From NCBI GenBank assembly GCA_973895155.1, contig OZ316892.1, forward strand, positions 2,731,223 to 2,795,222: 64,000 nt of DNA. The letters run 5' to 3'. This document shows positions 2,657 through 61,198 of the stretch, piece by piece. Below the pieces are notes generated by a model. The model had not been told where the DNA came from. It saw only the letters and a program-made list of their open reading frames with translations, and did not search any database. The stretch comes from Marsupella aquatica. Taxonomy: Eukaryota; Plantae; Marchantiophyta. The position numbers were made by a program, and so were the translations under genes. How positions within the stretch are numbered: the stretch's first letter is position 1; each line of letters opens with the position of its first letter.

Positions 2657-4961
2657 ATGAGTGACTCGGAGGATACTAGAAGAATTGGCATCGGTGGAGC
2701 TTCAGGATCACGACGGTTAGACGAAGAGTTTGAGGAGGAGCTGCTACCGTTTGAGGAAGAACTAGTGACACCAGTATGATCACCGGTGCGGCGTGTAGTG
2801 GAGGAAGCTATCTTACTACCAGAGCTGTCGGTAGTTGGAAAGAAGAAGGAGATGGCTAGATTTGGAGGAGTGAAGTTTGAGGTGGAGAAGTACGATGACC
2901 GTACTGATTATTTGCTCTAGGAAAAGCAAGTGAAGGGTATTCTACGTGCCATGGGCTTAACTCATCTGTTTTCTTCGCGAGAGCAGTATGATGGAGAGGA
3001 GGAGATTTCTGTGAGACAGTGGAGACAGGAGCAGGTGATTGTTGTCAATGCAATGATGCTATATCTCAAGCCGCACATCATCAAACAGCAGGATGATTAT
3101 GCGGATTGCGCGTCACTGTTCAAGGCTCTAAGAGAGAAGTACTACCGGGAAGATGCGTCAGACCGGCTGTACAAGAAGTCTCTCTTGATGAGCCTCAAGC
3201 TCAAGGAAGGGAGCAAGATGCAGGATCACCTGGATGAATTTGACAGTCTAGCGGTGGATCTGTCAAACCTGGGAAAAGGAGTTGAAGATGAGGATAAGGC
3301 CTTACTTCTGCTAAGCTCCTTACCGCCGTCATATCAGGGCTTGAAACAGGTGCTCTTGTATAGAGATCTGAAGTCCATTTCGTATAATGAGGTGGTGAGC
3401 TCATTACTGTCTGATGATGCTCAGAAGAAGCTGGATCAATCACAGACAACATCTTCTTTTGGCACTGCGTTGAACGTTAACCATGGGAGACCAGCGCAGC
3501 GCACGAATGGGCAAAACAGGTTTAGATCTACATCACGAGGAAGATCTAAATCCAGAGGGAAATCGCAAGAGAGGAAGCCTCTTGCATGTTGGAATTGTGG
3601 CAAGCCTGGCCACAAGAAAAAGGATTGTCAAGTAAAGGTCCCTACTGCATTTGCTAACGCGGCATCGAGCTCGCATGAGGTAGATTTACTCGATGATGAT
3701 GACATATTGTGATATCAAGGTTATGCTCTCAACGTAGTGTCAAATCCAGGTAGTGATGATTGGATTCTAGATAGTGCATGTACTTTTCATATTTGCTCTA
3801 GGAGAGATTTTTTCAGTTCTTACACAGTTTCCAACGGGTTAGTGTTGATGGGAAATGGAATCCCATGTCAAGTTGTTGGACTTGGATCTGTAAGATTTCA
3901 GATGTTTGATGGTGTTGTGAGAACGTTGAGGAATGTGAGACATGTTCCCAGCATGATGAAAAATCTCATTTCAGTTGGAGTTTTAGAAGCAAAGGGCCAT
4001 TAGTGGAGCTCTGCTAATGGTATCCTTCAGGTTTCAACTGGTACTAAAGTTGTATTGAAGGGAAAGAGACATAGCAATCTATACGTTTTGGACGGCAGTA
4101 TAGTCTGTGATGAAGCCAATATAATCTTATCTCATGAGGAGACGGCCCGGCTGTGGCACTTCTGTTTGGGCCACATGAGTGAAAAAGGTTTGGCTATTCT
4201 TCAGAAGAAAGGATTACTTTCTAATTTGCAATCTTGTAAGTTAGAATTTTGTGAGCATTGTGTGCTAGGGAAGCAGCACAGGAAACCATTCGGAGTTGGA
4301 ACTCACACCAGCAAGGTGGTACTTGAGTATGTACATAGTGATGCGTGGGGTCCAGCCCCTACTCCCTCACATTCTGGACGGTTATACTATGTCACGTTCA
4401 TTGACGATTACTCAAGGTATGTGTGGATATACTTTCTACACAATAAGTCTGATGTTTTTGCCACTTTTAAGGAGTGGAAAGCCCAAGTTGAGAATCAGAC
4501 CGGTATTAAGGTGAGATATCTACGATCGGATAACGGCGGTGAATATAGTTTTGGTGAATTTTGAACGTATTGTAAGGAGCAAGGGATTACCCGCCATCTC
4601 AAAACAAGTTATACTCCTCAGCAAAATGGTATTTCTCAGAAACTCAACCGAACACTATTGGACCGCTCGAGGAGTATGTTGAGTCAATCATGCTTACCAC
4701 ATGAGTTTTGGGCTGAAGCTGGTAACACTACAGCTTATTTGGTAAATTTTTCTCCATCTAGTTCTATTGGATTCAAGACGTCATTTGAAATGAGGTACGG
4801 ACGTCCAACAGATTATTCACATCTGAGGATTTTTGGATGTGATGCTTATGTGCTTACACCTTCCCAGCTTCGATCCAAGCTGGAGTCCAAGTCAAAGAAG
4901 TGCATTTTTCTTGGCTATCAGAAAGGTGTGAAGGGTTATAGGTTATGGGATCCAGTAACCT
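2657..4961 (+). pseudogene. Ty1/Copia (Tnt1-like) gag-protease-integrase, 5' part, decayed
   Basis: GVKFEVEKYD gag start, zinc knuckle CWNCGKPGHKKKDC, protease WILDSACTFH, pre-integrase LWHFCLGH/CEHCVLGK, integrase YVHSDAWGP/LRSDNGGEY, KCIFLGY..KGYRLWDPVT. Several in-frame stops. Cut at 4961 by the CACTA insertion. Confidence 0.93.
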
Positions 4962-7900
4962 CACTAGAAGAAACCAGCCCATTTTGAGACCTGGAGATGT
5001 GTGACTTGTCCAAGACCTTCATGAAATAGCGACTCCAAGGTTGTTGGTGTCATGTTAGTCACACCTTCTTGACTGATTTTTGGTGAAGTTTTGCCAAGTC
5101 ATGTTTACAACTTTTAGGTAAGTTGCAACTATAACTTAGTTAAGGCAATTAGGGTGAAGTTATACAAGTGACTCTACATTAGAGTACAACTTATGAGACC
5201 ACTACATTTGAACCCTTAAACCTTAAAGTATGGGATCCGCGACCATATACATATGATTTTGGATACACCATATGTCATTCCACATCAATTTAATAATAGT
5301 TTAGTCATACCATTCTAAACCATAATTACTCCTGACCCCATTTAGACACAATGAAGCCTCAGCCCCGTTCAAACCGAGAGCAGGCCGGCTTTGTCAAACC
5401 TTGTTATTAACCTAACTTAATGCTTTTTGTAGTCAATCTCTAATTTTCTCCATCTTTACCACTTGTCCTACCCTCTATACCAGCCATAGAACATTGGATG
5501 TCCAACTACTATATTTTTGCATGCTATATATATATATATGCATATGAAGAAGGCTTGATCTTAGATAGCATTAGTTTTCTTTTAGGCTCATCATTTGTGC
5601 TCTTAATTAATGAGCATGCAACAAGGCTATTGTAAGGTTAATCCTAGCCCTGTGCGTTCATTTAATCTTTGCTCATATTGTGTTGTGTCAAATTTGCTTT
5701 AGGGTTTACAGCTCATGTCAACGCAAAGTGGTCGAGTGTCACTGGGTTCAGTTCTCTCACTAAGTGTTAAGGTATGCATTGTGCGTTGCCTTTGGATACG
5801 AGTTTAGGGTGCGCGGGTTTTTCAACAGGAAACACACCAGTAGAGTGCAAATGGGAGTTGAAGGTGCGCGGGAACTCGGAGGTTTTTGTCAAGGAAAAAC
5901 TTGGATGTCCATTGTGCTTACCAACAACCATCGTTTAGGGCGAGGAGCTTTACGGACTTCACTCCCGCTTGTCGTGCTTGAGTGTACATCTGCCCTCTAT
6001 ACTTTTGGGAGCTTTGGACTAGAGCAGATGATCGGAAGCCTCGGACGAGAGACACAGACTCCAATATCCAGCTCGTAGATCAATCCGTGATTGATTTTGT
6101 CAGGTGTGCGACCTTCAAGCTCTTCTCCATTGTGCGCTTCCAGTTGAATGCTGCAAGGTCTGAATACTATCGGGAGCTCGCATTTGGGCCAAGGTTTAGG
6201 TATTTTGTCATTGGAGGACTGAGCTGTGGGTTTAGGCCGACTTACTATGAGCTTATGTTGTTGCAGCTGTGACCAATAACTGAGGAGCTGCGACCAGGAG
6301 CTTATTTTGTTGCAGCACTACCGTGGACAAGGGGTTGTGGAGGATCGGGGAGCTGCAACGTAGAACTGAGGAGCTGCAAAAAAGTGGGGAGTGATCTTGA
6401 AGGCCAACTATCTAGCGTGAGGTGGATCATCGTGGTTGCAACAGCGATCGGGCCCTTTTTTGCATTGGCATTGTCAGTAAGACAATCTGTGGATGCGCGA
6501 AAGAGTCACAAGGAGTTGTTCTTGTGGGCAGAGATTGGAGTTCACATTTGGTAAGTCCACCTCAATAATGACATACATTGTAGGTGGAGGCAATGTTATG
6601 GCCTCTTGTTGTCTTTAAACTCATTCTCCACTCACAAGAGAATGAGGATTGATTGTGTCCTGAGAAGCTTAACAATTTATGTTGTTGACATCGTCCACAT
6701 TGAGTGACAGTGAGCTCAAGTCAGTGAGTGACCGATCAAAGGGGACATTTGTGCTCTTCATTACATGCTCGGGCAAGAGTGATTGATGTACTAATCGCAA
6801 GCGCTCCCAAGTATCCATTTGTCGTTAAGGCTTGAAGCTTCACCGGGAGCTGCGACCGTCAATGGGGAGGAGTTGGAGGTTGTGTTGCACTCGTACACAA
6901 CCTCCAAGGTACAAGGCAGGAGTTGTGCAATTTAAGGTGAGAGTCAGTAGCTTTTGGGATTCACCATCTTTCATCGTTGTCATCGCTGCTCTCGTCTATC
7001 GCTACGGCTGATTGCTGCTCTGCGTTTTTGCCATGGGTTGCCAGTCTGCCAGATGCTGAGTGAGACAGAGGCTACAACCTGGGTGCATGGAGGTCCTCAC
7101 TAATCCCATGGTTTACAGTTTGCAAAATGTGACAGCCCCAGTGCACAGTGAGGTATAGGGTGTGTGAGGTATAGGGTGTTCTTACTCGTGCTACAGTCGC
7201 TTTGACTTGCTGAGTTCCAGCAAATTGAGTTTTAGGTGCGGTCAATGAGAGTTGAGTTGTTTGAGCTGCGGTCACTGAGAGTTTAGAGTTTGAGCTGCGG
7301 TCACTGAATGCTGGCATTGAGGTGCACGCCCTTCACATTGATCAGTGAAGGCTACGGCCAGGGTGATTATGACAGTGATTCTAATGCAAACCGTCCAGGT
7401 AAGATTTATGTGACATTGTGTACAATGAAAGTGGCCCTGCTTATTGACTGCTTAATGTTTGTGTTGCAACTGGCAGCAGATGCATGGAGTGCAGCGAAGG
7501 GAGGCGCTATTCATGTGAGCTGACAGGGGAGCTGGACTTGTGAGCCGTGGTTGCAGCTACGTCTTGGAGCTACGACCTATGAGTTGCGGCTAGAGCTACG
7601 ACTTGACCTGAAGGTGACGCATGAAGAGTAATTTTGCAATCCATGAATGTTTGTACTCAATGTTATAGATGCATAGGGTGGGTGTTGCATTTTGTTACTG
7701 TAAAATGTCCGTGATGTCGTGAGATGTTCTGTTCCTTGGATTGAGACAATTCTTAGATCTCTGCATCAGCGATTATTGTATGTCATGTCTCACCTCAGAT
7801 CATGAACGTGATTGGTTGGAGACTATATTAATTGGGGAGGAGCTCCAATCCGTTGTCATTGCTTCTCAGTGGAGTGTTGTTTTAGTAAGCTACAGGGGGC

Positions 7901-8084
7901 AACAGAGCGCAAGTTGCTGCTTGCAAGTTCACGCCTGCTACCTGCTACCTACGACTTCCGCCTGAAAGGTATGACATTCACATATGCGCATTTCTGGTCT
8001 CCAGTTGATCAATGTACTTATTCCCGCTGCCTTGAAATGGACCTCAAATTTCCATGCTCCAATACGCTACTGTGATCGAAGCCT

Positions 8085-8222
8085 ATCACGATGCAAAAAC
8101 AGAGGAGAGGCAGAATCAGAGCCCGGACACCAACGTGTACAAATATCACGAAGCTAAAATAGAGGAGAGGAAGAATCAGTGCTCGGCTCGGACACCAAAG
8201 TGTATAGACATCATGAAGCTAA
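8085..8222. repeat. Imperfect ~60-65 bp tandem duplication inside the CACTA
   Basis: ATCACGA..AGAGGAGAGG.AGAATCAG..CGGACACCAA.GTGTA occurs twice, plus a partial third start. Confidence 0.7.
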
Positions 8223-8885
8223 CTACAAGCTAGCAAATAGGTCAAATGCTCCCAAATCGAGTCAGAGGAAAGTTACTAAGACTACCTTCACAACTCTCAA
8301 GTCTGGAAAGTAAAAATCAGCCTGAGACACGTAGCAAGAACTGTTGTCTGCTAGGAACTGTTGTCTGCTTTCTTGGGGATCGTCATGTGTATGTAATTGC
8401 ATACACATTCTACCTGAGGGGAGTATGACTGTACACCTCAGGTAGAACCGAGTACTATCTATCGCATGATATAATTCCTCTACAATTTTGTATTAATGTT
8501 GCCTAAGTGCTTTGTTGTATTGTTTTGGTTGTAATGACGTCACTTGCATTTCATAGTCAGTCTTAGTTGGTTGGCTTGGTACTCATTTGCTTTTCACTCC
8601 CTCTGGCTAGTGAATTTGTCTATTGTTGCTGAGTTTTTTGCGTAAGAACTACATGTTCTTCACTTTCTTTCTCTCCCCTATGGAAGACTATTGGCTTGGG
8701 CTGCCAGCCTTCTCTCTGTTTCAATTTGTTGTCCCTATGGTCAAACACTACTTGGTTAGTGGTTTTGCTCTATTTTTGTCTGTTTTGCCTTCAAGTAGGA
8801 CATGGATGAATTGAGCTTGGAGGCAACAAAATGGCAAGGCCGAATCTGAATGGTTCCAGAAGTATGTGTGCTGCATTTTGATCTG

Positions 8886-9556
8886 GAGAACCAATTGTAG
8901 AGTTGACTCTTTTTGAATGTTGTAGTCTATTTTGCCTTGAACTGGGCCATGGATGAATTGAGCTTGGAGGCAGTTTTTTTCATTCCCATCTTCCTGAAGC
9001 CTTGTCTGCTTTCTGCCACCCCCTTGTGGTGGGGACTTTTCTTGAAAGATCCTTATTGTGAACAGAGTTTGTACTTTGATTATGAAGTTTGACTGAGTTT
9101 CTGTTTACTGAAAGAATGTGACTGTGTAAGAGTTTCGTTTGGTAGTGGATTGGTTGAAGCACTTCCTGCTAGTGTGTTGTCCACAGCTCTTCAACCAGCT
9201 TTTGTATTCCTTGTCTTTCACCACTTACGGTGACATCAATTCAGCTAAGACCATAGAAGGTTCCAAGGCATCTAACTTGTAAAATCGCATTCTGTTACAT
9301 CAAGGACTAAGGTGTTGGGTACCAAAGGAGACAGCACAGCAAACGTGCTGAAAAGACTTCAGGACTGGGTTCAACAAGGTAGTGAAGGTGCTTAGAGCCA
9401 TAGTAAGTATGCATTCTGTATCCTTTCTCTGTTGATGTGAGCTTGTGCATAGTAGGAGTTGTAGTTGGCAAGAGTTCCATAAGGCCAAATATGAATAGTT
9501 CTAGAAGTATGTGTATGAACCAAGTGTAGAGTTGACTCTTTCTAAATATTGTAGTC
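8886..9556 (-). pseudogene. Ubiquitin C-terminal fragments (two copies) captured in the CACTA
   Basis: Minus strand 8927-8886 reads DYNIQKESTLQLVL and 9556-9518 reads DYNI*KESTLHLV. Ubiquitin residues 58-71 are DYNIQKESTLHLVL. Confidence 0.75.
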
Positions 9557-10142
9557 TCTTTTGCCTTCAACTGGGCCATCGAGTACTGCTAGTGTATTCA
9601 CCCCAATGAGCAATGCTTCTCCATTCAATCAGGTGAACGTACAGTTTGGTAGGGCCAATGCCATGTGATCATGTACTTGCTCTATAAAATTCTGAAGATA
9701 TAAGCATTTTCTGTTAGACCAGGCAACTTGGGAGTTGCTAATTGTCACCTGCATCTGAGGGGCTATACCGGGGGCATAAGTGGAGGTTCACTTGCACAAC
9801 ACGACAGCCAGTGAATTTTCTCTCTGCTGCAACCTGCAAGGTGAGACTTTTGGTCCTTCTGGATGAAAAAACAGGATTTTAATATGATTGATATACATGT
9901 CCGTCGAGAACATGGGTTTATCACCAAGCTCTTTGTCTTAGGAAACTCATAAACTCAGAATCAAATATGTACTATGCACGTTTCATGCTATGTGTATACT
10001 ATGACCTGTAGTTGGAACCAAGACAGTGAGTGGGAACTGATTAGTTTAGGTTGGTTGTTGTTGGCGAGGCAAGTCGACCTCCTGCTCGCCTTGCTCATCA
10101 AAGGACGTGAATAGAGGACGTCACAATGAAAGCAACACTTAA

Positions 10143-10592
10143 ATGGTGAGGACCCGCAACGCTGAACATGTGCGGCTTGCACGCAAGGCAGAGATGTTGC
10201 GCCTTGAGTATGTCAGACTTGGGATCCTTCCAGCCCAGTCTGCATGGTACTTTGAGTACCCTGTTGTTTCCAAGAACAACTACAGCCGGCCTCTACCTGC
10301 TTCAGTACCCTTCCCGACATCCTTGGTATTTGTGTCTCTTGTACATGACCCGCCACAAATTAGGTGCCAAGGGTGTGTGCACAGTTGCCAATATGACTGT
10401 CTTGCCTGTAGGGCTTCTGGCCCAGAATTGGATGACCGTTCTCTTGGATGCCGATTTTTGCACAGAGCACAATGTATCATCTGGAACCACTCGCCATCCT
10501 GCAGTGTGCCTGGTGATGTCACTTGTCCTGCCCTCCCAGACCCCACCACTGGTGGCTTTGGTGTCTACACATGTTTGGATCACATGCTCTAG
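10143..10592 (+). CDS. CACTA cargo ORF: 149-aa Cys/His-rich, degenerate PHD-like zinc-finger protein
   Basis: ATG-started open frame with CQGC..CLAC..GCRFLH..C..YTCLDH, resembling a PHD with a terminal CxxH. Confidence 0.5.
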   Translation: MVRTRNAEHVRLARKAEMLRLEYVRLGILPAQSAWYFEYPVVSKNNYSRPLPASVPFPTSLVFVSLVHDPPQIRCQGCVHSCQYDCLACRASGPELDDRSLGCRFLHRAQCIIWNHSPSCSVPGDVTCPALPDPTTGGFGVYTCLDHML

Positions 10593-11206
10593 AGGACCAC
10601 TTGTCACACCACATGCATAGACCAGATACCATTGACCTATAGCTTAACACTCTGCCTTCAACACAGAGGATATTTACTTAAAATTTTGATGTATGAGCAA
10701 TTTTGGGTCCAGGGTTTAGGGTCAACAGTACATAACTTATCCTAGTATGCATGCACTAAGCAAAATATCCTAATTTAAGAGGCTACCAAACTCGCTTAAA
10801 AGTCTCTATTGAAAGACTACTTTAATATTGCTTTAACCTGGTGAACATTGCAATGTTGAATGAATTAATGGGCCATGTGATAATATGCAAAATGTGATTT
10901 ATGCCTCACTTATTTGTCTTAGCCACTATCATAACCTATTTAGGATGTATAAATTTCAACCCTTATGACACTGCTTCATACCAATCCTCTTCGAAGAATG
11001 CCTGTTTTACATGTCACGACTATTGTATGTGATTCAAATGCATGAAATGTTGTTGCAGATCTCCTTTGGTGAATCATAGCCACAATTAAAATTGAGGTGT
11101 TGGTGAAGAAATTGTATTAGGGGATCAGTTTTGTGTGTGGGCTCAACATACCCAAAGTATGTGTGCTCTGCATCCTTGTGTGGCCATTCCAATTCATTGC
11201 ACTAGC

Positions 11207-11350
11207 AAATGCCTTTGTACCTTAAATGCTAAATATATTTTACTTTCTGTGCAGTCTGCTAAATTGTAGAGTCTATCTAAATGCCTTTGTACCTTAAATG
11301 CTAAATATATTTTACTTTTTGTGTAGTCTGCTAAATTGTAGAGTCTATCT
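11207..11350. repeat. 72-bp tandem duplication directly upstream of the EDM2-like ORF
   Basis: AAATGCCTTTGTACCTTAAATGCTAAATAT...GAGTCTATCT at 11207-11278 and 11279-11350, nearly identical. Confidence 0.9.
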
Positions 11351-11361
11351 CATGCGCAGGC

Positions 11362-12042
11362 ATGGCACGGCCTAAAATTCAAGCCAAAAAGCGTGTGACA
11401 GAGGTGAGAAACATAGGTGTACTTGGGGCAGATGCTACTAACTTCTCTGCAAGTCAGATTTTCCAGAAGGCAGCTCATTGTTATGCCATTTGTGACGATG
11501 GTGGGGGCCTGGTCATTTGTGAGGGCCCTTGCATGAGGCATTTCCACCTCAACCCGGAGTCTGACCTTGCTGCAGAAAACAACTGTCCAGGGGTGGGCCT
11601 CCCATCAACACACCAGGGAGACTGGATGTGCACTGATTATTTGGAGAAGCAGGCTAAGTGTGCACAGTGTGGGAAGTTGGGGTCCTATGAGGGCTCTGTT
11701 GATGCTGCAGCAAATGTTAGGAAATGTCTAGACCATTTTTGTGTGAGATTTTTCTGTTTTGAGTGTTTGCCTGCTCATGCCACAACTTGCCCACTTCATA
11801 GGTGCAAGGCATGTGGTGAGCATGATGATGACTACTGGACTGACATAGTCCACTGTGCTAGGTGTCCCACTATGTGGCACTATCATTGCCTGAAAGATCA
11901 TCAAGCAGAGGGTTATGCTTGTGACAGAGAAATCTATGATCACTCTGCACATGGTGTTGATCGATGGATATTTTATTGTCATCGCCATGCCATTGATCCT
12001 ACCTCGCGCACTCCTGTGAGAGATCACATATCTTGGCTGTGA
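11362..12042 (+). CDS. CACTA cargo ORF: stand-alone EDM2-like composite PHD-finger protein (226 aa)
   Basis: AICDDGG.LVICEGPCMRHFH, CAQCGKLGS, TCPLHRCKAC, CARCPTMWHYHCL and IFYCHRHAID..RTPVRDH match, in order, the EDM2 PHD region as I recall it (CAICDNGG..CEGSCLRSFH..TCPLHKC..CRRCPKSYHRKCL..IYCQEHEID..TPVRDH). Splice-acceptor-like GCAG just before the ATG. Confidence 0.85.
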   Translation: MARPKIQAKKRVTEVRNIGVLGADATNFSASQIFQKAAHCYAICDDGGGLVICEGPCMRHFHLNPESDLAAENNCPGVGLPSTHQGDWMCTDYLEKQAKCAQCGKLGSYEGSVDAAANVRKCLDHFCVRFFCFECLPAHATTCPLHRCKACGEHDDDYWTDIVHCARCPTMWHYHCLKDHQAEGYACDREIYDHSAHGVDRWIFYCHRHAIDPTSRTPVRDHISWL

Positions 12043-12634
12043 AGCTGAACATTGTACATGCACAATGCACCTGATGTGGATGTACTATTTTTTGAGATTG
12101 CAGAGATTCCAATTTTGAAAAGGAGTTGGGTAGGCGAGTTTATATAGGCAGCACTTATCTTGTGCTCTGGCGTCAGTGGCTGGGTACATGCCTATACAAA
12201 CTTATCCTTACAAGCCTTCTTGGAAGTATTTAGGCTGAGTGGTCATTTTCATAAACACTTTCATCAGACTGCTAAATTAAAACAGGACTTCTAAGTTGTA
12301 AGCGTATAAATTATCAGGCATGCAATTAATCAAATTGCCCTATAAGTTTGTCATTGAATGTATCCTCCTTTACAACAAAATATGTATGTGCCATGACAAG
12401 TTGGTTGCACTTCATTTCACCACGGATATGGATTTTGTAGTATATATTCAAACAATGTCCTGCATCCATGCAGGTGCCTAGTACGTATTGTTCACATATC
12501 CCTTGTACCTATCAAAATCGGACCTGAGCACCAGTGGGCCAGATCAACTCAAAAAGCAGGAATTTTGTTGTCCTTGTATTGTCAGGTGAACCCATTCTTC
12601 CAAAATTCACTATCATCACGTAGGGTGTGTGTAC

Positions 12635-13507
12635 ATGGAGCCTGGGACACATAGAAAGTGTGACCACCCAGCAGTGTTTATAGGGGTCAGAGCGATTTTG
12701 GTCCATGGCCAGCATGGGTTGACCAAAGTGCATTGGCCAACTGTACAGAAACGATTCTCTGAGCTCCATGGCACTGTAGTTCAGGACATCACTCCAGAGA
12801 CTACACATGTTGTTGCAGGGACATGGCTATCAGTGATAAAGAAGTGGTCATGGTCCTACATGAATTCTGCAATTACTAAGCAAGGCCTAAAAGTAGTTGA
12901 GGCCTCTTGGATCATAGATTCCATAGCACATAAGATTGTACAGGATACTGAGCAATATGAGTTGTGGGAGGATGAAGAAGCTACTGCATCAGCTTGGGCT
13001 GAACAAGAAGTCTGGGAAGCAAAGGCACGGCTTGCTGATCTCCAATATGGACCTGTACTCAACAAAGGACAGAGCTCTACAAGGCTGAAGAGTATGTTGG
13101 CTGAGGAGACGAAGCAACCAACCCCCATTCTGAAAGGGCTGAGCATGGTATTTGTGGAGGCGGGAATTGGAGAGGTTAAGTGCAAAGTGTACAAGTCCAC
13201 AGTGCTTGACCTAGGTGGGACAGTGGAGGAGAATATAACAGAGGACACCACTCATGTCATTACTAAGTCATATCCCAAAGCCTGCCGCAAATTTGGGAAG
13301 GGAGACATTCGCTTTTATGTCATGTCCCATAATGTGTTTGTGGTTTCATATGCTTGGCTTGTGGAATCAGTAGCAGCTGGGAAGCGTCAAAACCCAATGG
13401 ACTATGATCTTTTTGAGGCCTGGCCACGGAAGGGTCAGGATCCTTACAGAGAGGACTATGAGACAACAAGTGAGGAATGGGTCATTAGCGATTCTGAATC
13501 AGAGTGA
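12635..13507 (+). CDS. CACTA cargo ORF: tandem BRCT protein, DNA polymerase lambda BRCT-like (290 aa from ATG)
   Basis: Two repeats with BRCT hallmarks: HGTVVQDITPETTHVV..SWIIDSI..Y and LGGTVEENITEDTTHVI..YAWLVESVAAGKR..Y. LKGLSMVFVEAGIG resembles the Pol lambda BRCT start. Acidic C-terminal tail. Confidence 0.85.
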   Translation: MEPGTHRKCDHPAVFIGVRAILVHGQHGLTKVHWPTVQKRFSELHGTVVQDITPETTHVVAGTWLSVIKKWSWSYMNSAITKQGLKVVEASWIIDSIAHKIVQDTEQYELWEDEEATASAWAEQEVWEAKARLADLQYGPVLNKGQSSTRLKSMLAEETKQPTPILKGLSMVFVEAGIGEVKCKVYKSTVLDLGGTVEENITEDTTHVITKSYPKACRKFGKGDIRFYVMSHNVFVVSYAWLVESVAAGKRQNPMDYDLFEAWPRKGQDPYREDYETTSEEWVISDSESE

Positions 13508-13940
13508 GGAGTAGTAGCATCAGTTTGGACACAAGTTTTTTTGTATAAATCAGATCATTGAAATAAATGTGATCTTTGAACTAATGTACCTTGTTATGGT
13601 TGGTGGCAGTTGGGCTTATTTTACTGTTGGCGGATTGTTGTTTCCTGCTGCCTGGGGGTGTCACTATAAACGTACATGTAGAGGCGGTACATTTGAGGAC
13701 GGCGGAGGAGGTGGTGACACCCTCCAACATTTAGGAATTTTGTGTCATTCACTTGACAATAGGTACACTACTTGCGAACCTGTTTTTTTCTTTTGGGGTG
13801 GTTTAGGGTTTGTGAGAATTTAGTACACGTTATGTTAACTCTTTTGGCAGATACAGTCAGGGATATATGGAACACAAATACCACCATTAGGCATCCTTGT
13901 TCACTGCTGTCCATGACTGCAGAGCTCCCAGCCTGTTACA

Positions 13941-16900
13941 ATGCACCCTGGTCACCACCCTCCCCAGACCCAGCCCAGGGCACAGGCACTGCCTTTGCAT
14001 CATCCCACAAGGATATCACGCCATGATAATAAGCTTTGGCAGCGTGAAAGGTTACGAACCAGACTTTCAGGAGCCAGTAGGATGAGATGTCCTTGTGCAA
14101 TCTGCCAAGGATCCCGTACTAGGGGTCTGAATGAGGTTTGGCGGCATATCGCGGTTCATGGAAGAGATCCACGACATCGAGTTTGGAATGATCCTGTAGA
14201 GGAAGATTCTTCCGACGAGGAGTGGAGGTTAGAATTTGATGCTGCCAATGCTGCAAGACGGGCAAGTGAGGTTCTGCCTGGTGCATTTGAAAATGTTGTA
14301 GCTGGTCTCTGTGGGTTGTCAGCTCTCCAACGGGATGGTGCTCAGGCAGCACCACGTGACAAAGGAATTCATGTGGAAGAGATGGTGAGAGACATCTTCC
14401 AAGACTTGGATGCATTTCATGATGGGCTGGACAACGAAGAGGATACGGCTGCAGATGCAAGTGTGCCCCCTGTCGAAGAGCCTCTTGATGAGTTTGAGAT
14501 AGGGCAGGAAACCCCTGGGCATGATGGGATGTTTGGCTCTCCCCTGCAAATACAGGAAGGCAGGAAGTCTTTGTACCCCGGTAGCAAATGTTCTAAACTG
14601 GGATTTGTCATCATGTTCCTGAACATTTGCGGCAACCACAATGTCCCCAACGTTTTGGTTTCTGAGTTGTTGGCATTCTTGCGAACAACTGTGCTACCAG
14701 ATGGTAATATTTTGCCCAAGAACATGTACGAGGCAAAAAGATGCATATCTAATCTTGGATTGAACTATGATTCGATCCATGCCTGTCCTGATGGGCATGT
14801 TCTTTTCAGAAAGGAGTATAAAGAATTGTTGACATGCCCTAAGTGTGGGAAGCACAGGTATCGGAACTCAGGAAAGTCTATGGTTCCCGCCAAGGTACTT
14901 CATCATTTTCCACTCATTCCCAGACTTCAGCGGATGTTCAGAAGCCGTGCCATCTCGGAGATGATGACTTGGGCAACTGACAAGAAAAGTGATGTTGGGC
15001 TACAACGACATGCTGCAGATTCAAGGCAATGGAAACTCATAGATGAGATGTATCCCGAATTTGCTGCTGAGCCAAGGAATGTCAGACTTGGGCTGTCATT
15101 GGATGGGGTAAACCCATTTGGAGACAAGAACAACAAATTTTCGTGCTGGCCTGTAACTATTTTGAATTATAACCTTCCTCCTTGGATGACTACAAAGCAA
15201 TTTTTGTTCTAATGGTCCTACTGATACCAGGGCCAGACAGTGCTGTATCTGCCAACATAGATGTGTTTCTGGCTCCCCTAGTGGAGGAATTGAGAAATCT
15301 TTGGGAGGAAGGAGTTCTCACATATGATGTCCTACAGAGGCTTGGGAGGTTAAACCCATTCATCCTTAGAGCCATTGTCATTCTGACTATAGCTGACTAC
15401 CCAGCCCATGGGATGATATCAGGCCAAACAACAAAAGGATATTGTGCTTGTACTATCTGTGGGCGTAATGTCACCAGTGAGTACTCCAAAGCCCTGCAGA
15501 AAGTGATATACATGGGCCATCGTCGTTTTCTGAAGGCAGATCACCCTTACAGAGAAAGACAGGCACTGATTGCACACTTTGGCAATGAGATTGAGCAACG
15601 TGGACCCCCGGCACGAGTGACCAAAGAGGAGATCAGGCAGTGGGGAGCACTGAGGGATGACTATATCAAACGAGGGGGCAGGGAAGATGGAGTGAGTGAT
15701 CCAATAAAGTGATATGGTGTAAAAAGACTGAGCATATTGGACTTGGAGCTCAAGTACTGGAGGGTAAGCCTCTTGGAGTTGATGCTAATTGGGATACATG
15801 TTTTGGTTCAGAGCATGTGCATTCATTTCGAAGAGAGAGACTAAACTTGAGGCATTTCCTGACGCTTTTGCATTGCAACGATGCAGGAGTTTGAGCCAAG
15901 CAAACATAACATTGATGTTATGCACATTGAAAAGAATATTTGTGAGAGTCTACTCAGATTCTTGTGTGGAGAGAAAGACACTGGTTCAGTGAGATTGGAT
16001 CTTGAACAGAGGGGAATGAAACCCCATCTTTGGTTGAGGCCACATGCCCACAGAGCTGATGTGCTCTTGAAGTACCAAGCGCCCTATGTTCTGACAGACA
16101 CAGAGTGGGAACTATTTGTGCAGAGGTTGAGTTCTTTGAAGGTTCCTTCAAACTATGGCAGTGCTTTCAAGAAGCATATCATGACTAGAAAGCTTGGTAG
16201 TATGAAAAGCCATGACTACCATATGTTGATGCAACAAGTGTTGCCTTTATGTCTGAGGGGCCTGTTGCAGAAGCCTGTTTGTACTGTGATCATGCGACTC
16301 AGTGATGTGTTTCGTCGTATTTGTGTGAAGGTTTGGGATGAAACACACTTCCCACAACTGACAGAAGATGTCGCTCAGGTGCTGTGTGACCTGGAGATTT
16401 ATTTTCCTCCCGCATTTTTTGATGTCATGACCCACCTACTTGTCCATGTTGTGGAAGAGCTACACCAATTTGGGCCTATGAGTGCTCGTTGGTTGTACCC
16501 TTTGGAACGGTACATGAAGCTACTCAAAGGTCACGTGAGAACATATTACAAACCTGAAGCAAGCATGGCTAAAGGTTACATCAAGGATGAGACTCTGGGA
16601 TTTCTGACCGAATACATAGCACAATATGAGCATGTGAAGACCAGGGTGTGGAATTCTGATGAGGAGGAAGGGGTGATAGGTGAAGTACTGGAAGGGGCTG
16701 CAACCACAAAGAACCTGACCATATCTATGAGAGACTTGGCACATGACTTTGTATTGCACAACACTGTGGTGATGGAACCCTGGATACAGTGAGTGCATAC
16801 ATGTGCTATAATCCAGTTCATGAGCTTAAATGTTGTGTTCGTGTGGTTTTCTCCTTCAGCCTGTTCATGTTTACCCAAGCTAATGCTGTGTGGTTGTTCG

Positions 16901-17671
16901 TTCAGGGAGTATGAGTCATTGAAGGCGGCCCATCCCACTGCAGGAACAACTTTTCCAGGTTTCATGGAGTGGATCAGAGTGGCAATTAGAGAGCATCACG
17001 AGACCCACCCAGACATGGATGCAGATGTTTACCTACTGTCTAATGCCCCTAGCCTGAAAGTGAAGACTTACAAACGGATGAGAGCATATGGGAATCACTT
17101 CCGAGTGAAGGATGGTGACAGTGCCTACAGGGTGACGAATGACTGCGGGCTCATCACTGTATTTGAGCAATAGAGCCACAATCACGACAGGGCCTGGATG
17201 GAGATGGGATATGTGGGAGAATTAGTTGACATATGGGCTCTGGACTATGGGGCGGTGTCCAGTCCTGTGATTCTTATGAAAGGTTCATGGGTGCGGCAGG
17301 ATTGGCTTGGTAACAGGGCTACCATGAAGAGAGACAACGACGGTTTCTTGCTGGCCAATTTTAGACGGAAATTGCCCGAATGGTCTGAGCCATTTGTGTT
17401 TCCTAGTCAGGTGGAGCAAGCTTTCTTCCTGGATGTGGAAGACTCCCCAGGTTGGCGTGTAGTGTGTCATAAACAGGCCAGGCAACGTCGGATGGAAGGA
17501 TCAAACCTTGAGTTTCATTTACACTCTCATAGTGCCTTTGATCGTCGGCGTTCAGACCAAGTGCCTGTAGTTCATGATAGCGGGGACTTCATTCCTGTGA
17601 CAAGGGTAGATGCATTTGCTGAAGGAGGCGAATTCAGAGATGCAGATGCCAACAGTGTGCCTGTGCCATGA
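13941..17671 (+). pseudogene. CACTA TnpD/Tnp2-like transposase, inactivated
   Basis: N-terminal CPCAIC..H..HG, IHACPDGH..CPKCG, RHAADSRQW, RNVRLGLSLDGVNPFG, NYNLPPW, DYPAHGMISG, HNIDVMHIEKN, MKSHDYH, FFDVMTHL, RWLYPLER, EPFVFPSQVEQAFF. Introns 15764-15886 and 16789-16905. Frameshift near 15200; stops at 15710 and 17171. Confidence 0.93.
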
Positions 17672-17827
17672 GTAATGTGAATTGTTTGCATGGACATTAG
17701 TGAGGGGAAGGATGTGTAATAAAGTAATTCTAAAGCAACACAGATGTATGGATGGATGCCTGGTGATTGTGATTGCATTGTGTTATACGGGGTGATCATA
17801 GATGACATGTTTTTGTGGTCCAATAGG

Positions 17828-20800
17828 ATGGAACAGAGTGACACAGAGATGTGTGAGTATGAAAGGAAAGCTATGGAACAACGAGCATACGTGAAAGCCA
17901 AAATCGTAGAACTGGATCTGGAAAAGGATGTGGCTGAATTGTAAGGGAACGATTCTCAACTACACCCCTCCGCTGAGTTTGTGTGACATGAATAGTTCAA
18001 TGTGGCACTGAAATTGTGACTGTATTCTCATATTGGAATGTCGCAGAGCTACAGCATTTTCAAAGAAACAAAAGGAGTACGCAAGAAGGGTGACCAGCAC
18101 TATCTCTGGGCCTATGCGTCGGAGTGACAGGTTGAGCAAGAAGGTCGTACCTACAATGGCAGAATGTGGAGATGACATTGATGCTGCACAAGTGGGTGCA
18201 GACACTAGACAAGAAGATGCAAATGATGAGTATTTTCCAGAGGAAATGGATGAGGATGGGGGTTATGAAGATGAATACATTGCAGAGCAGCCCCAAAAGA
18301 AACAGGTAAGTAGTTTTCCCAACAAGGTTTTGAGTTAAAAACTCTTGTTTAGAGGTTTCATATGTTCAGTACTACACATATGTACCTTGCTTAGTTCCTG
18401 ACATTGTAGTTGGTGATGTGATGCAGCATCCTGCCAGTTTTGTTTTGCCTTCGAAGCCTGTGCATGCACCATACCAGCAGGGGGGGCTGACCTCTGATCA
18501 AGGTTGGCGAGGTGGTAGTAGTGGTAGATCCCAGGCTGGTGCCCAATACTATGGCAGGGGGCAAGCTCTAGGTTATGCCCGTGGTAGAGGCAGAGCAGGT
18601 CCAAACCCACAATCTCGTGGGTATGGACGTCCACCTCAACCATGGGGATGTGAGTATATATCTATATGCCAGTTCTTTGTGAAGGCATGGCACTCCTGAA
18701 TTTCAGACTGCATATCAATTTTTGACATTGTTTGGGATGTATTGGATTCAGACAACATGAAATTCTGTCCACCTGCCATTGCATGCAGATTCTGCCCAAC
18801 TTGATTGGGCAAATGCTAGTAATGATCAGTTCCAATGTCCACAAGGACAGACATGGGTTGAACCAGGTTGGGAGGATGGTGGTGGGTCGTGGAATGAACA
18901 AGGTTGGGAAGGTGGTGAAGGTAATTGGCAGGGATATCAAAATTTAGTACCTACAAACGCTGGAAGAGGGGCAGGTAATGTCTGATCTTGTCAGCAATGG
19001 AAGAACTCATTATATGTGGAGTCCATTCACGTGGGGGGGACTCTGCACATGTATAATGATAGAAAATGTATGTGTGCAGGTTGGACAGTCGAACCATCGA
19101 CTCAAGTATTCACTAATGCCCCTATGCAGATGCAGCACGGAAGGGGGACAGGTATGTCGGTGAATGTTTAGTTGTTTTCCTATAGTTTGTACTTAGTTTT
19201 CAATACATATGTTTGCACACACATACCTAGAAAGTGACATCATCCGGCCCCTGTACTAGGCTGGACAGGTGGTCCAGGGTCGCATCAATTTCAGAGTGCA
19301 GTCCCTGCACAGGCATCTACAGGCAGAGCTACAGGTATGTATGTTTGAAGAATTTTTCTTGAAGTGAAGCATTGAATATTGCCGTCATCCATTCTGCTCT
19401 ATGTAGTTCTCAAGCATGAATGACATTGTATTTTCCCAGGTGGCTTCAGAACCCCAGGTAGGGTGAATGAAGGGGTGGCCAATACAACGCCCAGTACTAC
19501 CGAGAGCAGTGCACGAGGGGAGGTGACAAAGAAAGGGAACATAAAGTTGAATGAGAGACAATGGGTGGATGCTGAGTGTCCTCGCAAGAACCGATGGCAT
19601 GCTGATTTGAAAGCTAAAGTATTGCGTTGGTTAGATGTGAGTGTTATTAATTTTAAAAAACAGCATCCAAAAGATTGGAAGACTGTATGTGAAAATGTTG
19701 CTGCCAAATGGAATTATGTGGGCAGTGATGATGGCGTGGACATAGGTTGCCTAGAGAGTACAGCAGGTAAAATCATCAAGCAAGAGAGGTGGAGAATGCA
19801 TAAGGCTTGGAAGGAAGGTGGGGAGAAGCCAGATATGCCTCCACCAGCCAGTTGTGATGATAAAGTGTGGGCAAGGTTAGTAGCTTATTTTGTAACAGAT
19901 GCTTCAAAAAAGAAGAGTTCACAGATGACCAAGGCCAGGTTGAGTGTTCAGAACCCTAATCTGACAGGAAGGACCGGCACTGCACCGACAGCTAAACATT
20001 TGGTAAGAATGAATGGCCCAGCTATGTAATTTATGCTACAGTATGTACTATTTTTTAGTGTAAACCCATACATGTAAACTTTGTTTTTTAGTGTACGTTC
20101 CCTGAATATTGATCGATAACTTGTGTTTGCCATGCATGTGCAGAAAGCCCAATTGGGGCAAAGCCCTTCAAAAGAAGAGTTGAGGGCTGAAATTGTGAAC
20201 ACCCGGGCTCAAGAGGGTGCATCTGAATCCTCCAAGCATGTAAGTTATATGAGTTCTGATTGGTAATTGAATGACCTGCGTTGAATTTCAGGTGTACACT
20301 GTGTGCATATATTGCCCAACATTTCATATGGAGTGATTGAACCTATACCCCTGTGTCATGTAGGGAGGTGGATCTTCACTTACAAAGATAAGTGGTCGTT
20401 TGAAGGCTATCGAAACATGTCTTCTAGAGATCAATGAACGTTTGAATTCATTGACTGACTTGTTCCATGTGAACTTCAAGACATTAATGGAAGCTATTGT
20501 GTCGGTGAGAGATAAAATTGATTCCAATTCTGCAGGAGTTCCACCATCACCACTTGAGGTGGCAAAGTCGATGCACTCTTCTGGCATGCCAACGACATGT
20601 AGGCTTGAAGGTAAGGCCTTTACAACTGTGTGGGATATGATTATTAAATGTATAGTTTGAATTGACATTGTTTGTTGAATGTGTTATTTTCAGTAACATA
20701 TATTGTGGTTGTTGTGTCCATAGAGAATAAGACAGGTGCTACAGAGAAGAAGTATGAGAACCTGGCAAATACTCGCTGTAATTTAGAGGCAACAAAGTTG

Positions 20801-21520
20801 CAGTCTATACAAGCAACTTGTTTGACAGAGAGCAGTCAACCATGTTTGGATGAGGATGACATTGGCAAGGGAGTGGATGATATCAATGTTGGGGCAAATG
20901 AGGATATCAGCAAGCATGACAATGATACCATTGAGCCAGATTCATGCTATGTAGATCTTGACTCCATTGCAGAGATAAATGATTTGCAGAATGTATCATT
21001 CTCAATGACAGGTGTGCCTCTTGTTGAGATAAATCCAACCAAAGAGTTAGTTGGTATGACACTCCCAGGTGATGAACCTGCTACTGTGACAGTCCTAACA
21101 GAGGAACCTACTGAGCCTAGCTTCACTACTGTGAAGAGAGGAAGCATGCGCACACGAAGCAAGTCTGCTGGTGGGAGCAGAGCCACGTCAAAGGTTTCAT
21201 ACAAACCTCCAAGAACAGTGCTGGCAGAAAGATCTAAGGTGGAAGTGGGGAAAGCACCTAATGCTGAGGGACAAAGTGGCTTGTTAGCTGTTGATGAGAG
21301 TGGAACACGAGTAGGATTTGGCAGAGTGCAGGTTGGTTCCACAACGTTCCATGGCAAGAGGATTCCCCCAGGTTATTCAGTAGTGTTAGTCACATTACTA
21401 GTGAAACCTAAAGCTGTCCTTCCCATTCCAAACACAAATGATGATCCTCCTCAAAAGACACTTGGAGATGCTGCAGGTTCTTTGGTATTATGGCCAAGCA
21501 AGTTCATAGAGGATCCATAA
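17828..21520 (+). CDS. CACTA TnpA-like multi-exon gene with a GW/RG-rich region
   Basis: Exons bounded by GT-AG: EYERKAMEQR N-terminus, Gly/Trp-rich exons 18410-19334, a Ptta/En-Spm-like segment VWARLVAYF..KKSSQMTKAR..TGRTG (19440-20002) and a C-terminal TNP1-like FHGKRIPPGYSVV..LPIP..TLGDAAGSLVLWP. The junction at 18305/18410 is not phase-resolved. Confidence 0.75.
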
Positions 21521-22375
21521 CAATGTCATGCCATTATTTGTTTGTAGTGTGAGTCATGTTATGTAGATTTTAGATGTCAAGAACCAGTACAAGAATCATG
21601 TCCTCTTGGAGATTCATAGTATCATGCATGTGCTTTCAGTTATCTCATCCTACAGTCATCAATTATGAGTTCCTATTTTGTCTGAATTACATTGATCACA
21701 TTGTAAACTATTCCATTGGAATTCAAATGATCTTCATTTTTTAGCAAGATTGTGATTGTGTTTAATTCTTATGAATGTTTTATGTAGGATCTGCTGATAT
21801 GATGCTTTGTTTCATGTGGATGTCATTCATGCTATGTTCATTTCTTGTATTAAATGTGTTATATTTCTAAAGTTAGAACATCAGGTTTCTATGTATTGTA
21901 ATGTCGAGTGCTCTCTCTCCTCATGAACTGTCCCTCTGTGTTCATTAGTCATGGTTATAACTTGCATGTGAACCTTATTAGTTATAAACATGAGTATATA
22001 GAGTCCCAAATGGTTCTGTTGTGTGACGCGGGCCAGGGTCTCCATTGGTCTCTCCTGTGACACTAAATAGTCACACGCTAGTCGTTGTTGAATGCGGGTA
22101 AGTCATGTATGTGACTTACGATGTGACTCGCTGAAGTCATATTGCAGTCACGTCGAAACAAGGCTAGACTCCACAATAAAGTCACAGATCAGTCACAAAT
22201 GGGTATCAAGCAAGTTGCAAAGCCCAGTATCAATAGTGACTTCCATTTTTTGGTCTCAACTTTTGCAACTCCAAGGGTCACAGCGTGGGTCAAGTCACGT
22301 TGAGTCACAATGAAGTCACATGAGCCAAAATGAGTCACATATTGCGGTCTCAGTTCACCTCGGATTCTTCTAGTG

Positions 22376-24328
22376 CCTGTAAGCTAATTGTCAATAGAGA
22401 TGTGTCCTTTAATGAATCTAGATCATCAAAGGAGGGTGAGAGTTCTCAGGACTTCCATACTGACAAGGGGAAATCTCCCCTCCCGGACCGGGTTGAGGGG
22501 GAGATTAGTCATGATGCAGTTCATGACAGGAGAGATGGAGAAGCTCCGGGCTTGGAGCTGGTTCATATGATGGAACAAGAGGAGCAGATTATTGCTGGGG
22601 TACCTCAAATTCAACCAGCAGCAGCAGCAGATCAGCCTGAGTCATCTACTAGAAGAACTTCTAGTTGTTCTACTAGAGCTCCTACCAGGTATGGTCAATG
22701 GGCAGACTCATCTAAGCTAGATGATATTGACATTGCACCTGATGATGATGACATGGCTTTGATCTTGGAAGAAGGAGAGTCTTCTTCGTATAGTGAGGCT
22801 TGTGCTTCAGAGCAGAAGCATGAGTGGAATGCAGCAATGCAGAGGGAGTTGCAATCTTTGAGTGACAACAATACATGAGAGCTGGTGGAGCTTCCAAGAG
22901 GTCAACAAGTGGATTTACAAGTTGAAGGACAGTCCTTCAGAGGGTGGAGATAAGATCTACAAGGAAAGGCTTGTTGCCAAGGGGTTCACTCAGGAGAAAG
23001 GAGTGGACTACAATGAGGTCTTTTCACCGGTGGCTAAGTATTCCACAATACGGATCTTGTGTCAGCTTGTTGTGTTTTTTGGTCTGGTGATGAATCAGAT
23101 GGATGTTGTTATTGCTTTTCTCTATGGCAACTTGAAAGAGTTGATCTTCATAAGACAGCCACTAGGCTTTATGAAGAAGGGCCAAGAGAACTTAGTTTGC
23201 AGATTGCTCAAGTCCTTGTATGGATTGAAGCAGTCTCCCAGACAGTGGAACAAACGGTTTGATGATTTCATGCTTGCTCAAGGTTTTACAAGGATGGTGT
23301 ATGATCCTTGTGTGTATACGAAATCAGTCAAGAATGATGTATTTGGTTTCATCATTCTGGTGATCTATGTGGAGACATGCTTATTGTGGCTAAAGATCAA
23401 TCTGAGGTTGACAGTCTCAAGGCAAATTGAGTGCTGAATTCAGGATGAAGGATCTTGGTAAGGCCAAGAGGATCTTAGGGATGAAGATTTTTAGAAACTC
23501 TGATACTGGACAGTTGTGCTTGGATCAAAGCCAGTATGTGAGGAAAGTACTTGCACAATTCAACATGGAAAATTGTAAGCCAGTGAGTATTCCTTTAGCT
23601 TCACATTTCAAGTTATCATCGGTTTTCTCTCCTACGGATGCTGTGGAGAAAGGTCTGATGGCTAAGATTCCTTATGAGAAGGCAGTAGGCAGTCTGATGT
23701 ATTTGATGACTTGTACTAGGCCTGACTTAGCCCTAGCGATGGGCAAGATTAGCAGATTCATGTCAAATCCAGGAAAGGTACACTAGGGAGCTGTGAAATG
23801 GATTCTCAAGTATCTCAAGGGTACACAGGACTATGGATTATTATTTGATAATAGATCAGATAGAACGTTAGTTGGCTATGTAGATTCTGACTATGAAGGC
23901 TGTCTGGATACAAGGAGGTCTACAACTGGGTTTGTATACACTCTTGGAGGAGGATGTATCAGTTGGAAATCTACCTTGCAGAGCATATCTCAATCTACTA
24001 CAGAAGCAGAGTATGTTGCAGCAGGAGAAGCACCAAAGGAAGCAATTTGGTTGGATAAGTTGATCGCGGAGATGGGTTTAGGCATGGCAAAATGACTCTA
24101 AACTGTGATAGTCAGAGTGCTCTTCACTTGGCTGCTAACCAGGTGATGGATAGCAGGATGAAACACATTGATATCAGGTACCATTTTATCAGGCAAACAA
24201 TGTCTGATAAAACTTTTGAGCTAGTCAAGATTGATGGAAAGCTCAATCTCGCCGATGTCTTTACCAAAGTGATTCCTTTGGAGAGTTTCTCAAGACACCG
24301 TGCTACTTTGCAGGTTTTGCAGTTGTAG
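22376..24328 (+). pseudogene. Ty1/Copia 3' part (post-integrase linker, RT, RNase H), decayed
   Basis: Resumes CKLIVNRDVSFNE. KERLVAKGFTQEKGVDYNEVFSPV, QMDV..AFLYG, LLKSLYGLKQSPRQW, MKDLG, YVDSDY, STTEAEY, CDSQSA, KHIDIRYHFIR. Frameshifts and stops; no clear 3' LTR. Confidence 0.93.
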
Positions 24329-24466
24329 CACAAGTAGAGTTATTTAGCAATGTGTGACTATTTGTATATGGATTACTCATTCTTGTTTAGCTATGGCTTA
24401 GTTCTAGCTAGTTAACCCTTAGTTAACCCTTGTGGTTTTTAGGGGAGGACCTGGTTTGGTGATTGT

Positions 24467-24750
24467 CAATTTTAGAATTACAATTGGGGTCAAACAGTAC
24501 ACCTACCCTTACGGATGTGTGCACTAGATTGCCTTAACTTGTAACCTTATCAATTTCAAAGTTACAATTGGGGTCAAACAGTACACCAACCCTTGCGGAT
24601 GTGTGCACCAGAATGCCTTAACTTGTAACCTTATCAATTTTAGAATTACAATTGGGGTCAAACAGTACACCAACCCTTGTTGATGTGTTCACCAAAATGC
24701 CTTAACTTGTAACATTATCAATTTCAAAGTTACGATTGGGATCAAACAGT
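24467..24750. repeat. 84-bp tandem repeat, ~3.4 copies
   Basis: Units start at 24467, 24551, 24635 and 24719 (CAATTT..TTACAATTGGGGTCAAACAGTACACC..GCCTTAACTTGTAACC). Reverse complement of the array at ~48500-49230. Confidence 0.92.
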
Positions 24751-37600: not shown

Positions 37601-37718
37601 TGTTATATTCGGAGAGTTGCCAAAAACGTCCACTGGAAAGATGCAGAAGAACGTCCTCCGAGAGCGAGCTAAGAAGCTGGGGTCTCTCTCAGCTTCAAAA
37701 GGCAGAAGCAAGTTATAA
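34683..37718 (+). CDS. Peroxisomal acyl-activating enzyme (AAE-type short-chain acyl-CoA ligase), 3 coding exons
   Basis: [14 protein letters not shown]-binding [60 protein letters not shown], and C-terminal PTS1 SKL. Exons ~34683-34887, 35744-36818, 37315-37718. Confidence 0.95.
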
Positions 37719-60794: not shown

Positions 60795-61198
60795 CCTCCT
60801 CCTCCTCCTCCTCCTCCTCCTCCTCTTTGCTTTCTGTCTCGCTAATTTCCCCCTGCTACCAGAGAACATGAGATATTCAACAGCGAACAAACAATGAGCA
60901 CAGAAGGAAAAACATCAACTCCCTCTCTCTCCGGCTATTATGAGGACCAGACCTTCGTGCATTGTTTTTGAGGAGTCTCTCCCTCTCTCTCTCCGGCTAA
61001 TGAGGACCAGAGCTTCCTGCATTGATTTCCCCCTGCTACCAGAGAGAACATGAGACATTCAACAGCGAACAACCAAAGAGCACAGAAGGAAAAACATCAA
61101 CTCCATCTCTCTCCGGCTATGATGAGGACCAGACCTTGGTGCATTGTTTTTGAGGAGTCTCTCCCTCTCTCTCTCCGGCTAATGAGGACCAGAGCTCC
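60795..61198. repeat. (CCT)n tract plus a 180-bp tandem duplication upstream of the TRF-like ATG
   Basis: CCT repeat 60795-60824. ATTTCCCCCTGCTACCAGAG.. at 60845 and 61025. Confidence 0.9.

Follow-up and report, generated by a model that had tools for sequence, protein, structure and literature searches.

Architecture and insertion site of the element

The 64-kb window analysed here (64,000 nucleotides of contig OZ316892.1 of the liverwort Marsupella aquatica, assembly GCA_973895155.1, positions 2,731,223 to 2,795,222; all coordinates below are window positions) harbors a full-length CACTA (En/Spm) transposable element (TE) of 17,414 bp in plus orientation (4962..22375). Besides the tnpD transposase gene (13941..17671) and a tnpA-like gene (17828..21520), it contains three additional open reading frames (ORFs), all five genes being located on the plus strand: ORF1 (10143..10592, 149 aa) codes for a Cys/His-rich protein, ORF2 (11362..12042, 226 aa) for a stand-alone PHD cassette of the EDM2/NSD type, and ORF3 (12635..13507, 290 aa) for a twin BRCT protein with an acidic tail. 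The three ORFs are intronless and, separated by spacers of 769, 592 and 433 bp, lie in series upstream of tnpD and co-oriented with it, as a first-pass annotation of the sequence had described. The architecture of a CACTA element with three accessory genes is well supported, and we hold it with high confidence; the copy itself is a decaying member of a conserved family.

The terminal inverted repeats (TIRs; 4962..4975 on the plus strand and 22362..22375 on the minus strand) both begin with CACTA and agree in 13 of their 14 bases, and the element is flanked on either side by the target-site duplication (TSD) CCT (4959..4961 and 22376..22378). The earlier description of intact TIRs and TSD is borne out by the occurrence of an empty site, since contigs from 4/4 public sequencing runs compared join position 4958 directly to 22376. 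The target was a degenerate Copia element on the plus strand, whose gag-integrase portion (2921..4961) and integrase end with reverse transcriptase (22376..23786) flank the insertion; a single integrase frame reads across both flanks. Close to the right end, GTCAC/GTGAC motifs form a cluster of tandem rows (22022..22340), with 15 copies in the bin 22001-23000 as compared to 0–5 in any one of the 63 remaining bins and only 4 in the bin of the left end; these putative TnpA-binding sites are likely bound by TnpA. The CACTA-type TIRs, the 3-bp TSD, the subterminal repeats and a Transposase_21 core with acidic motifs together assign the element to the CACTA/En-Spm group.

The left arm includes a variable segment (5300..8900) for which Pfam and Rfam gave no protein or RNA family match; Rfam gave no match anywhere in the element. 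In runs X1 and X2, near-identical contigs covering this segment are about 12-18-fold shallower than those of the element body, and X5 and X7 contain hardly any; contig depth is not copy number, so that this ratio, like the deep PHD-like contigs in X7, is a hint only. Eight copies of the motif GAGCT(A/G)C(A/G), all on the plus strand, occur at 6285-7600. This part of the element may be specific to a subfamily or have been captured, or its motifs may serve as a cluster of sites for a binding protein. Telo-box-like motifs are present on one strand at 5700, 6228, 10712 and 13804 (four within the element, as compared to five in the remaining 46.6 kb); the two at 10712 and 13804, upstream of ORF2 and tnpD, weakly hint at separate promoters.

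The product of tnpD, with predicted introns at 15764-15886 and 16789-16905, matches the Pfam families Transposase_21, DUF4218 and DUF4216, with Pfam E values of 3e-26 and 6.5e-38 for the transposase core. In this copy the gene is disrupted by a frameshift close to 15201, which lies in a run of T and could be an assembly error, and by stop codons at 15710 and 17171. All four of what we take to be the conserved acidic motifs of TnpD were located in the broken frame.

The tnpA-like gene is predicted to comprise 10 exons with nine GT-AG introns and to code for 876 aa without an internal stop. Its match to Transposase_24 (E value 1.4e-4, 22.4 bits) lies below the curated cut-off of 28.7 bits. TnpA-like proteins have been described as apparently restricted to flowering plants (bioRxiv 10.64898/2026.08.24.746577, hereafter the Spm preprint); a tnpA-like gene in liverwort DNA, albeit with a match below the cut-off, stands beside that statement as an observation.

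The first-pass annotation had also noted a GW-rich region in tnpA and connected it with Argonaute binding. A Gly/Trp/RG-rich part is indeed encoded by four predicted exons (18427..19334, plus strand), with 37 G and 10 W in a stretch of 185 aa. Its GW/WG pairs, however, are not more frequent than composition predicts (six observed, 4.0 in shuffled sequences, P=0.19), so that they speak neither for nor against an Argonaute hook. The charged helix encoded by predicted exon 1 (17828-17940) may resemble the N-terminal helix with which plant CDCA7 binds DDM1, but PDB and Pfam gave no sequence support for this likeness. Binding of DDM1 by the CDCA7 helix has been reported (PMC12718391, PMC12711577), and a true likeness would mean that TnpA could recruit or sequester DDM1. 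Long contig pieces from the sequencing runs span the predicted introns, and no clean GT-AG joint is among the joints listed; the runs thus behave as DNA.

Conservation and relatives of the accessory genes

Homologues were found for each of the three ORFs in searches restricted to proteins of near length, i.e., covering unfused forms of ORF1 and ORF3. In the alignments, their identities to the proteins of this element are 80, 73 and 52% for ORF2, 60 and 55% for ORF3, and 58 and 55% for the two homologues of ORF1, and start, stop and length are mostly the same. Of the Cys columns in the alignment of three PHD homologues, 20 of 22 do not vary, as compared to 90 of the 195 columns remaining. The 15 indel positions listed all lie outside the ORFs, which make up 51% of the stretch (seven clusters, P 0.006). 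Among 18 coding contig pieces, one has a gap, of three letters, whereas gaps were observed in seven of the 12 spacer pieces (P 0.0025); two pieces of mixed content were excluded. Within a run, near-identical contigs cover cargo, spacers and tnpD to a similar depth (X1: 1641, 1554, 1782, 1775), pieces bridge from spacer to gene in several runs, and contigs from runs of the organisms coded A to F touch all three ORFs, with patchy coverage in X8 and X9. Other copies have deletions in their 5' and spacer regions, which indicates a plastic left arm. In simulations of neutral point mutation down to the identities of the homologues, the frames rarely remained open (2, 0 and 11 times in 400 runs; 44/400 at 80% identity), which speaks for their conservation.

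Same-size homologues, avoidance of indels and a separate clade of stand-alone PHD proteins (see below) argue, at the level of sequence, that ORF1 to ORF3 are conserved accessory genes and not random Pack-type cargo. The annotation's distinction between these whole genes and Pack-type fragments therefore stands. Several points weigh against this conclusion. The simulated test of open frames is biased because protein databases contain open frames only. The indel positions listed are 12 of 148 in one table and 12 of 21 in another, and aligners break more readily outside ORFs. Among the coding differences listed for this copy, 11/14 are non-synonymous, which is neutral decay and not selection, and a number of the stand-alone PHD relatives carry truncations or frameshifts, as copies of a TE would. 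In the sequencing runs compared, no contig spans the whole element, and that the homologues of 39-80% identity reside in CACTA elements is something we infer.

ORF2 matched three NSD-type PHD models of Pfam, all below their cut-offs (best E value 7e-5). A profile search without length limit yielded 322 proteins at E<=0.001, the best 150 of which were considered. Short stand-alone proteins from Logan, JGI and ENA assemblies occupy the best ranks among these 150; below them come long proteins of hosts (Arabidopsis, mango, an orchid, a fern and liverworts) annotated as EDM2 or PHD protein. The stand-alone proteins fall on one side of a branch in two quick, unrooted trees, with support by the Shimodaira-Hasegawa-like approximate likelihood ratio test (SH-aLRT) of 100 in a tree of 29 rows (nine stand-alone proteins, seven more fragmentary ones of the 16 being dropped, and 20 host rows) and of 82 in a tree of 66 of 154 rows, 16 of which are stand-alone. 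The clade shares 27-35% sequence identity with host EDM2-type cassettes, and no host donor above 35% was found among the 20 host rows aligned; because of this low identity, the capture appears to be old, with no donor standing out. A metagenome scan with the PHD alignment returned one of 257 candidate stretches (25% identity).

Several features separate the stand-alone proteins from their host relatives. EDM2, a protein of about 1,300 aa that influences poly(A) choice together with AIPP1/ASI1, contains an N-terminal RFD, found in the named EDM2 proteins, and a long C-terminal part, both lacking in ORF2. An acidic residue situated three positions ahead of the first Cys occurs in 15/15 host relatives and 0/9 stand-alone proteins, and the zinc ligand at position 132 is Cys in 9/9 stand-alone proteins but His in 14/15 hosts (one gap). 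In this copy, Tyr occupies the ligand positions 41 and 93, where contigs and homologues have Cys. Acidic residues in the region before the first Cys help PHD fingers to read the tail of histone H3. Since the acidic residue is absent from the clade, the mark preference of EDM2 cannot be transferred to ORF2. Thus, of the proposal that ORF2 is an EDM2-type PHD protein reading histone H3 dimethylated at lysine 9 (H3K9me2), the profile search and the trees uphold the EDM2-type cassette, while the reading of H3K9me2 finds no support, the RFD, the C-terminal part and the acidic residue being absent. A second EDM2-like family was observed in liverworts (P0015, P0018 and P0025; Calypogeia, Riccia and Marchantia), the members of which are 692-768 aa long and carry the PHD cassette near the C-terminus.

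The product of ORF3 matches the Pfam BRCT model above the cut-off in two stretches (E value 1.7e-13), and its two halves are 25% identical to one another (E value 2e-12). Sequence matches in PDB are all weak, with Rtt107 as the best (E value 0.001) besides BRCA1 and ligase 4, and human Pol lambda as the 36th of 36 (E value 1.4). The link to Pol lambda made in the first-pass annotation gains no support from this ranking of the human protein; the second BRCT domain may resemble that of plant Pol lambda. Matches in the atlas are all under 0.9 and of generic BRCT type, and the fold model has a predicted local distance difference test score (pLDDT) of 32. In viral contigs, a BRCT was found in none of 128 candidates, and no tnpD locus was detected.

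ORF1 belongs to no known family or fold: there was no usable match in Pfam or the atlas and no sequence match in PDB. A Foldseek comparison of its predicted fold with PDB and BFVD likewise gave nothing at E<=0.001, and the best Z score obtained was 4.1. The structure model, computed from three sequences, has a pLDDT of 57.6, and the lack of matches does not demonstrate a new fold. Together with its homologues, ORF1 defines a small protein family without a known match.

Possible roles of the accessory proteins

Our tentative preference, held at somewhat less than an even chance, is that the PHD cassette and the twin BRCT protein act as adaptors of TnpD and TnpA for chromatin docking and break repair, and are not silencing suppressors themselves. 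All steps of this scheme are ones that we infer. TnpA would bind the subterminal GTCAC clusters and make the complex sequence-specific, and it would also account for any anti-silencing, as it does in Arabidopsis Spm; the PHD cassette, whose mark need not be that of EDM2, would anchor this complex on nucleosomes and bias targeting; the BRCT pair would recruit or hold host end-joining or checkpoint proteins at excision or insertion breaks; and ORF1 might be a small zinc-binding helper. The present copy, which would have lost tnpD after insertion, would need trans-activation. The adaptor scheme is suggested by the fact that TE-captured chromatin readers (chromodomains, MBD, PHD fingers) have mostly been interpreted as aids to targeting, integration or chromatin interaction (PMC6673714, PMC8557442), that TnpA, a demonstrated sequence-specific anti-silencer of Spm, already supplies this function (Spm preprint), that known TE anti-silencers are narrow in action, which a histone reader alone cannot be (PMC6719617), and that this copy is inserted in the coding sequence of another TE (n=1). 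On the other hand, a single insertion site says little about targeting, and ORF1 to ORF3 are separate from the transposase, whereas most of the targeting domains cited are fused to it; both points count against an adaptor role.

The first-pass annotation had favored an anti-silencing toolkit. On such a reading, the PHD cassette would serve as decoy or competitor on H3K9-methylated chromatin and the Gly/Trp-rich stretch of TnpA would bind Argonaute, so that silencing of the family would be lifted. We consider this unlikely. The closest named relatives of ORF2 are EDM2-type proteins, EDM2 binds H3K9me2 on TEs (PMC7529245), the anti-silencer VANC probably originated from a captured host chromatin protein (PMC13547354), and the tnpA region is rich in Gly and Trp; moreover, TnpA-activated Spm keeps its H3K9 methylation (Spm preprint), which leaves room for a helper. 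However, the adjacency of Gly and Trp does not exceed what composition predicts (P 0.19), the acidic residue is missing from all nine stand-alone proteins, none of the cargo ORFs has a Pfam match of the VANC/PMD type, and a histone reader lacks the family specificity to be expected from the narrow action of known TE anti-silencers (PMC6719617). A different use of the EDM2 likeness would be an aid to the element's own RNA processing, with all five genes in series served by a far 5' promoter and the PHD protein helping read-through of proximal poly(A) sites towards the tnpD and tnpA messages. EDM2 suppresses proximal polyadenylation in H3K9me2 chromatin (PMC7529245), plant Spm genes are expressed via alternative splicing or as separate genes (Spm preprint), and acceptor-like AG dinucleotides terminate 2 and 1 bases ahead of the start codons of ORF2 and tnpA, respectively; but an AG near a start codon is common by chance, the telo-box-like motifs at 10712 and 13804 weakly hint at separate promoters, and ORF2 consists of the PHD cassette alone, without the RFD or the approximately 850 residues which follow the cassette in EDM2, making this explanation quite improbable. 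EDM2 is the host protein that enables genes in heterochromatin to be read through, and that its cassette was captured as a mimic or decoy which allows a five-gene transcript to be made while the element is H3K9-methylated is likewise an unlikely variant. If it were true, an EDM2 mimic, a twin BRCT repair adaptor and a new Cys-rich protein would form a transposon-encoded module that operates in heterochromatin without removing it.

The genes could also be real and selected but serve unrelated ends, such as self-control of copy number or interference with the cell cycle or its checkpoints, or form an exchangeable cassette with distant homologues in other elements, a prospect to which we assign a low probability. 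ORF1 matches nothing, the best structure matches of the BRCT protein are the checkpoint scaffolds Rtt107 and BRCA1, and the 5' and spacer deletions of other copies reveal a plastic left arm; yet both named domains fit a cut-and-paste life cycle, and an exchangeable cassette is at odds with the like contig depth over cargo and tnpD and with the pieces bridging spacer and gene in several runs. Neutral Pack-type capture of host gene fragments without function for the element, finally, has already been largely refuted and appears highly improbable: the predominance of non-synonymous differences in this copy (11/14 listed) and the presence of broken relatives would agree with it, but the ORFs are intronless, cover full domains, retain their ends at 52-80% identity and avoid indels, and none of the 20 host rows provides a donor above 35%.

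Comparison with known systems and surroundings of the element

The element shares its CACTA TIRs, the 3-bp TSD, the subterminal motif cluster and the location of tnpD upstream of a multi-exon tnpA with maize Spm/En and Arabidopsis Spm, from which it differs in that tnpD is preceded by three intronless genes and about 5 kb of non-coding sequence. The main text of the Spm preprint does not mention PHD or BRCT; its 962 RepBase Spm proteins could, however, include such domains. The annotation had regarded the combination of cargo genes as one not known from CACTA elements. In agreement, no paper on a CACTA element that carries a BRCT gene or a stand-alone cassette of the EDM2 type was found in a search that did not extend to RepBase, supplements or most subscription journals. 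Because anti-silencing by CACTA elements has been published for TnpA and for miR820, what is new is the combination of the cargo and not the idea. The miR820-carrying CACTA elements of rice likewise possess cargo linked to silencing, but this is an RNA aimed at DRM2 (PMC6719617), whereas the present element has no Rfam match. Pack-CACTA elements also contain host-derived sequence between CACTA ends; the element described here derives its cargo from an old capture, with frames that are conserved, and possesses tnpD and tnpA. Pack elements carry recent fragments and lack the transposase.

Arabidopsis EDM2 and the EDM2-like proteins of liverworts (MARPO_0028s0116, MARPO_0005s0286, and those of Riccia and Calypogeia) contain the same PHD cassette up to its C-terminal end motif, at 31-35% identity, but ORF2 represents a stand-alone type of about 225 aa in a clade of its own, without the RFD and the long C-terminal part and with the His-to-Cys exchange at position 132. 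TEs of Marchantia split into those with H3K9me1/H3K27me1 and those with H3K27me3 states, in a profiling that covered marks other than H3K9me2 (10.1101/827881). PHD fingers are common TE accessories, and there are also precedents for captured domains residing in genes of their own (PMC13547354, PMC13317346). VANDAL elements with VANC and the ULP1-carrying Kaonashi elements, both Mutator-like elements (MULEs), likewise encode, in a separate accessory gene, a chromatin or enzyme domain captured from the host, but they represent another superfamily with other domains. The function of VANC, an anti-silencer with a MAIN-like fold that causes sequence-specific hypomethylation of cognate copies, is experimentally established, whereas the roles considered here are putative. 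PHD-carrying TEs (CR1, Rehavkus and elements of Chlamydomonas), chromoviruses and CopiaMBD bear chromatin readers with proposed roles in targeting or remodelling (PMC8557442, PMC6673714, PMC6446971); in the cases described there, these readers are mostly located inside the transposase or polyprotein, whereas here a multi-finger EDM2-type cassette resides on its own gene beside a twin BRCT gene.

Plant CACTA elements have been described as two-gene elements with passive cargo; the long-kept PHD and BRCT genes would show that cut-and-paste elements are able to retain their own adaptors for chromatin and repair. The proteins might provide answers to how Spm-type elements are expressed under H3K9 methylation, an open point in the Spm preprint of 2026, to the choice of heterochromatic targets, and to the steering of excision-break repair. 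Being small and encoded by single exons, they are easy to test.

Further repeats and genes surround the element in the window. Two arrays of an 84-86-bp repeat (24463-24750 and 48515-49200), lying 24 kb apart in opposite orientation and 80-89% complementary, are probably the ends of another mobile element family. Between 40370 and 45641, hydrolase-like, NB-ARC and leucine-rich repeat (LRR) ORFs follow one another, with a 204-bp internal LRR repeat; we take this region to be a likely hydrolase-NLR immune receptor, similar to a class of nucleotide-binding LRR receptors (NLRs) of liverworts. An array of approximately 33-bp repeats (61396-61732) is situated downstream of a minus-strand ORF of 737 codons (58701-60914) which has no Pfam match. 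Ordinary host genes of the window code for an AMP-binding enzyme (35645-37718), an FSH1 serine hydrolase (54582-55331) and a COMM-domain protein (63246-63962).

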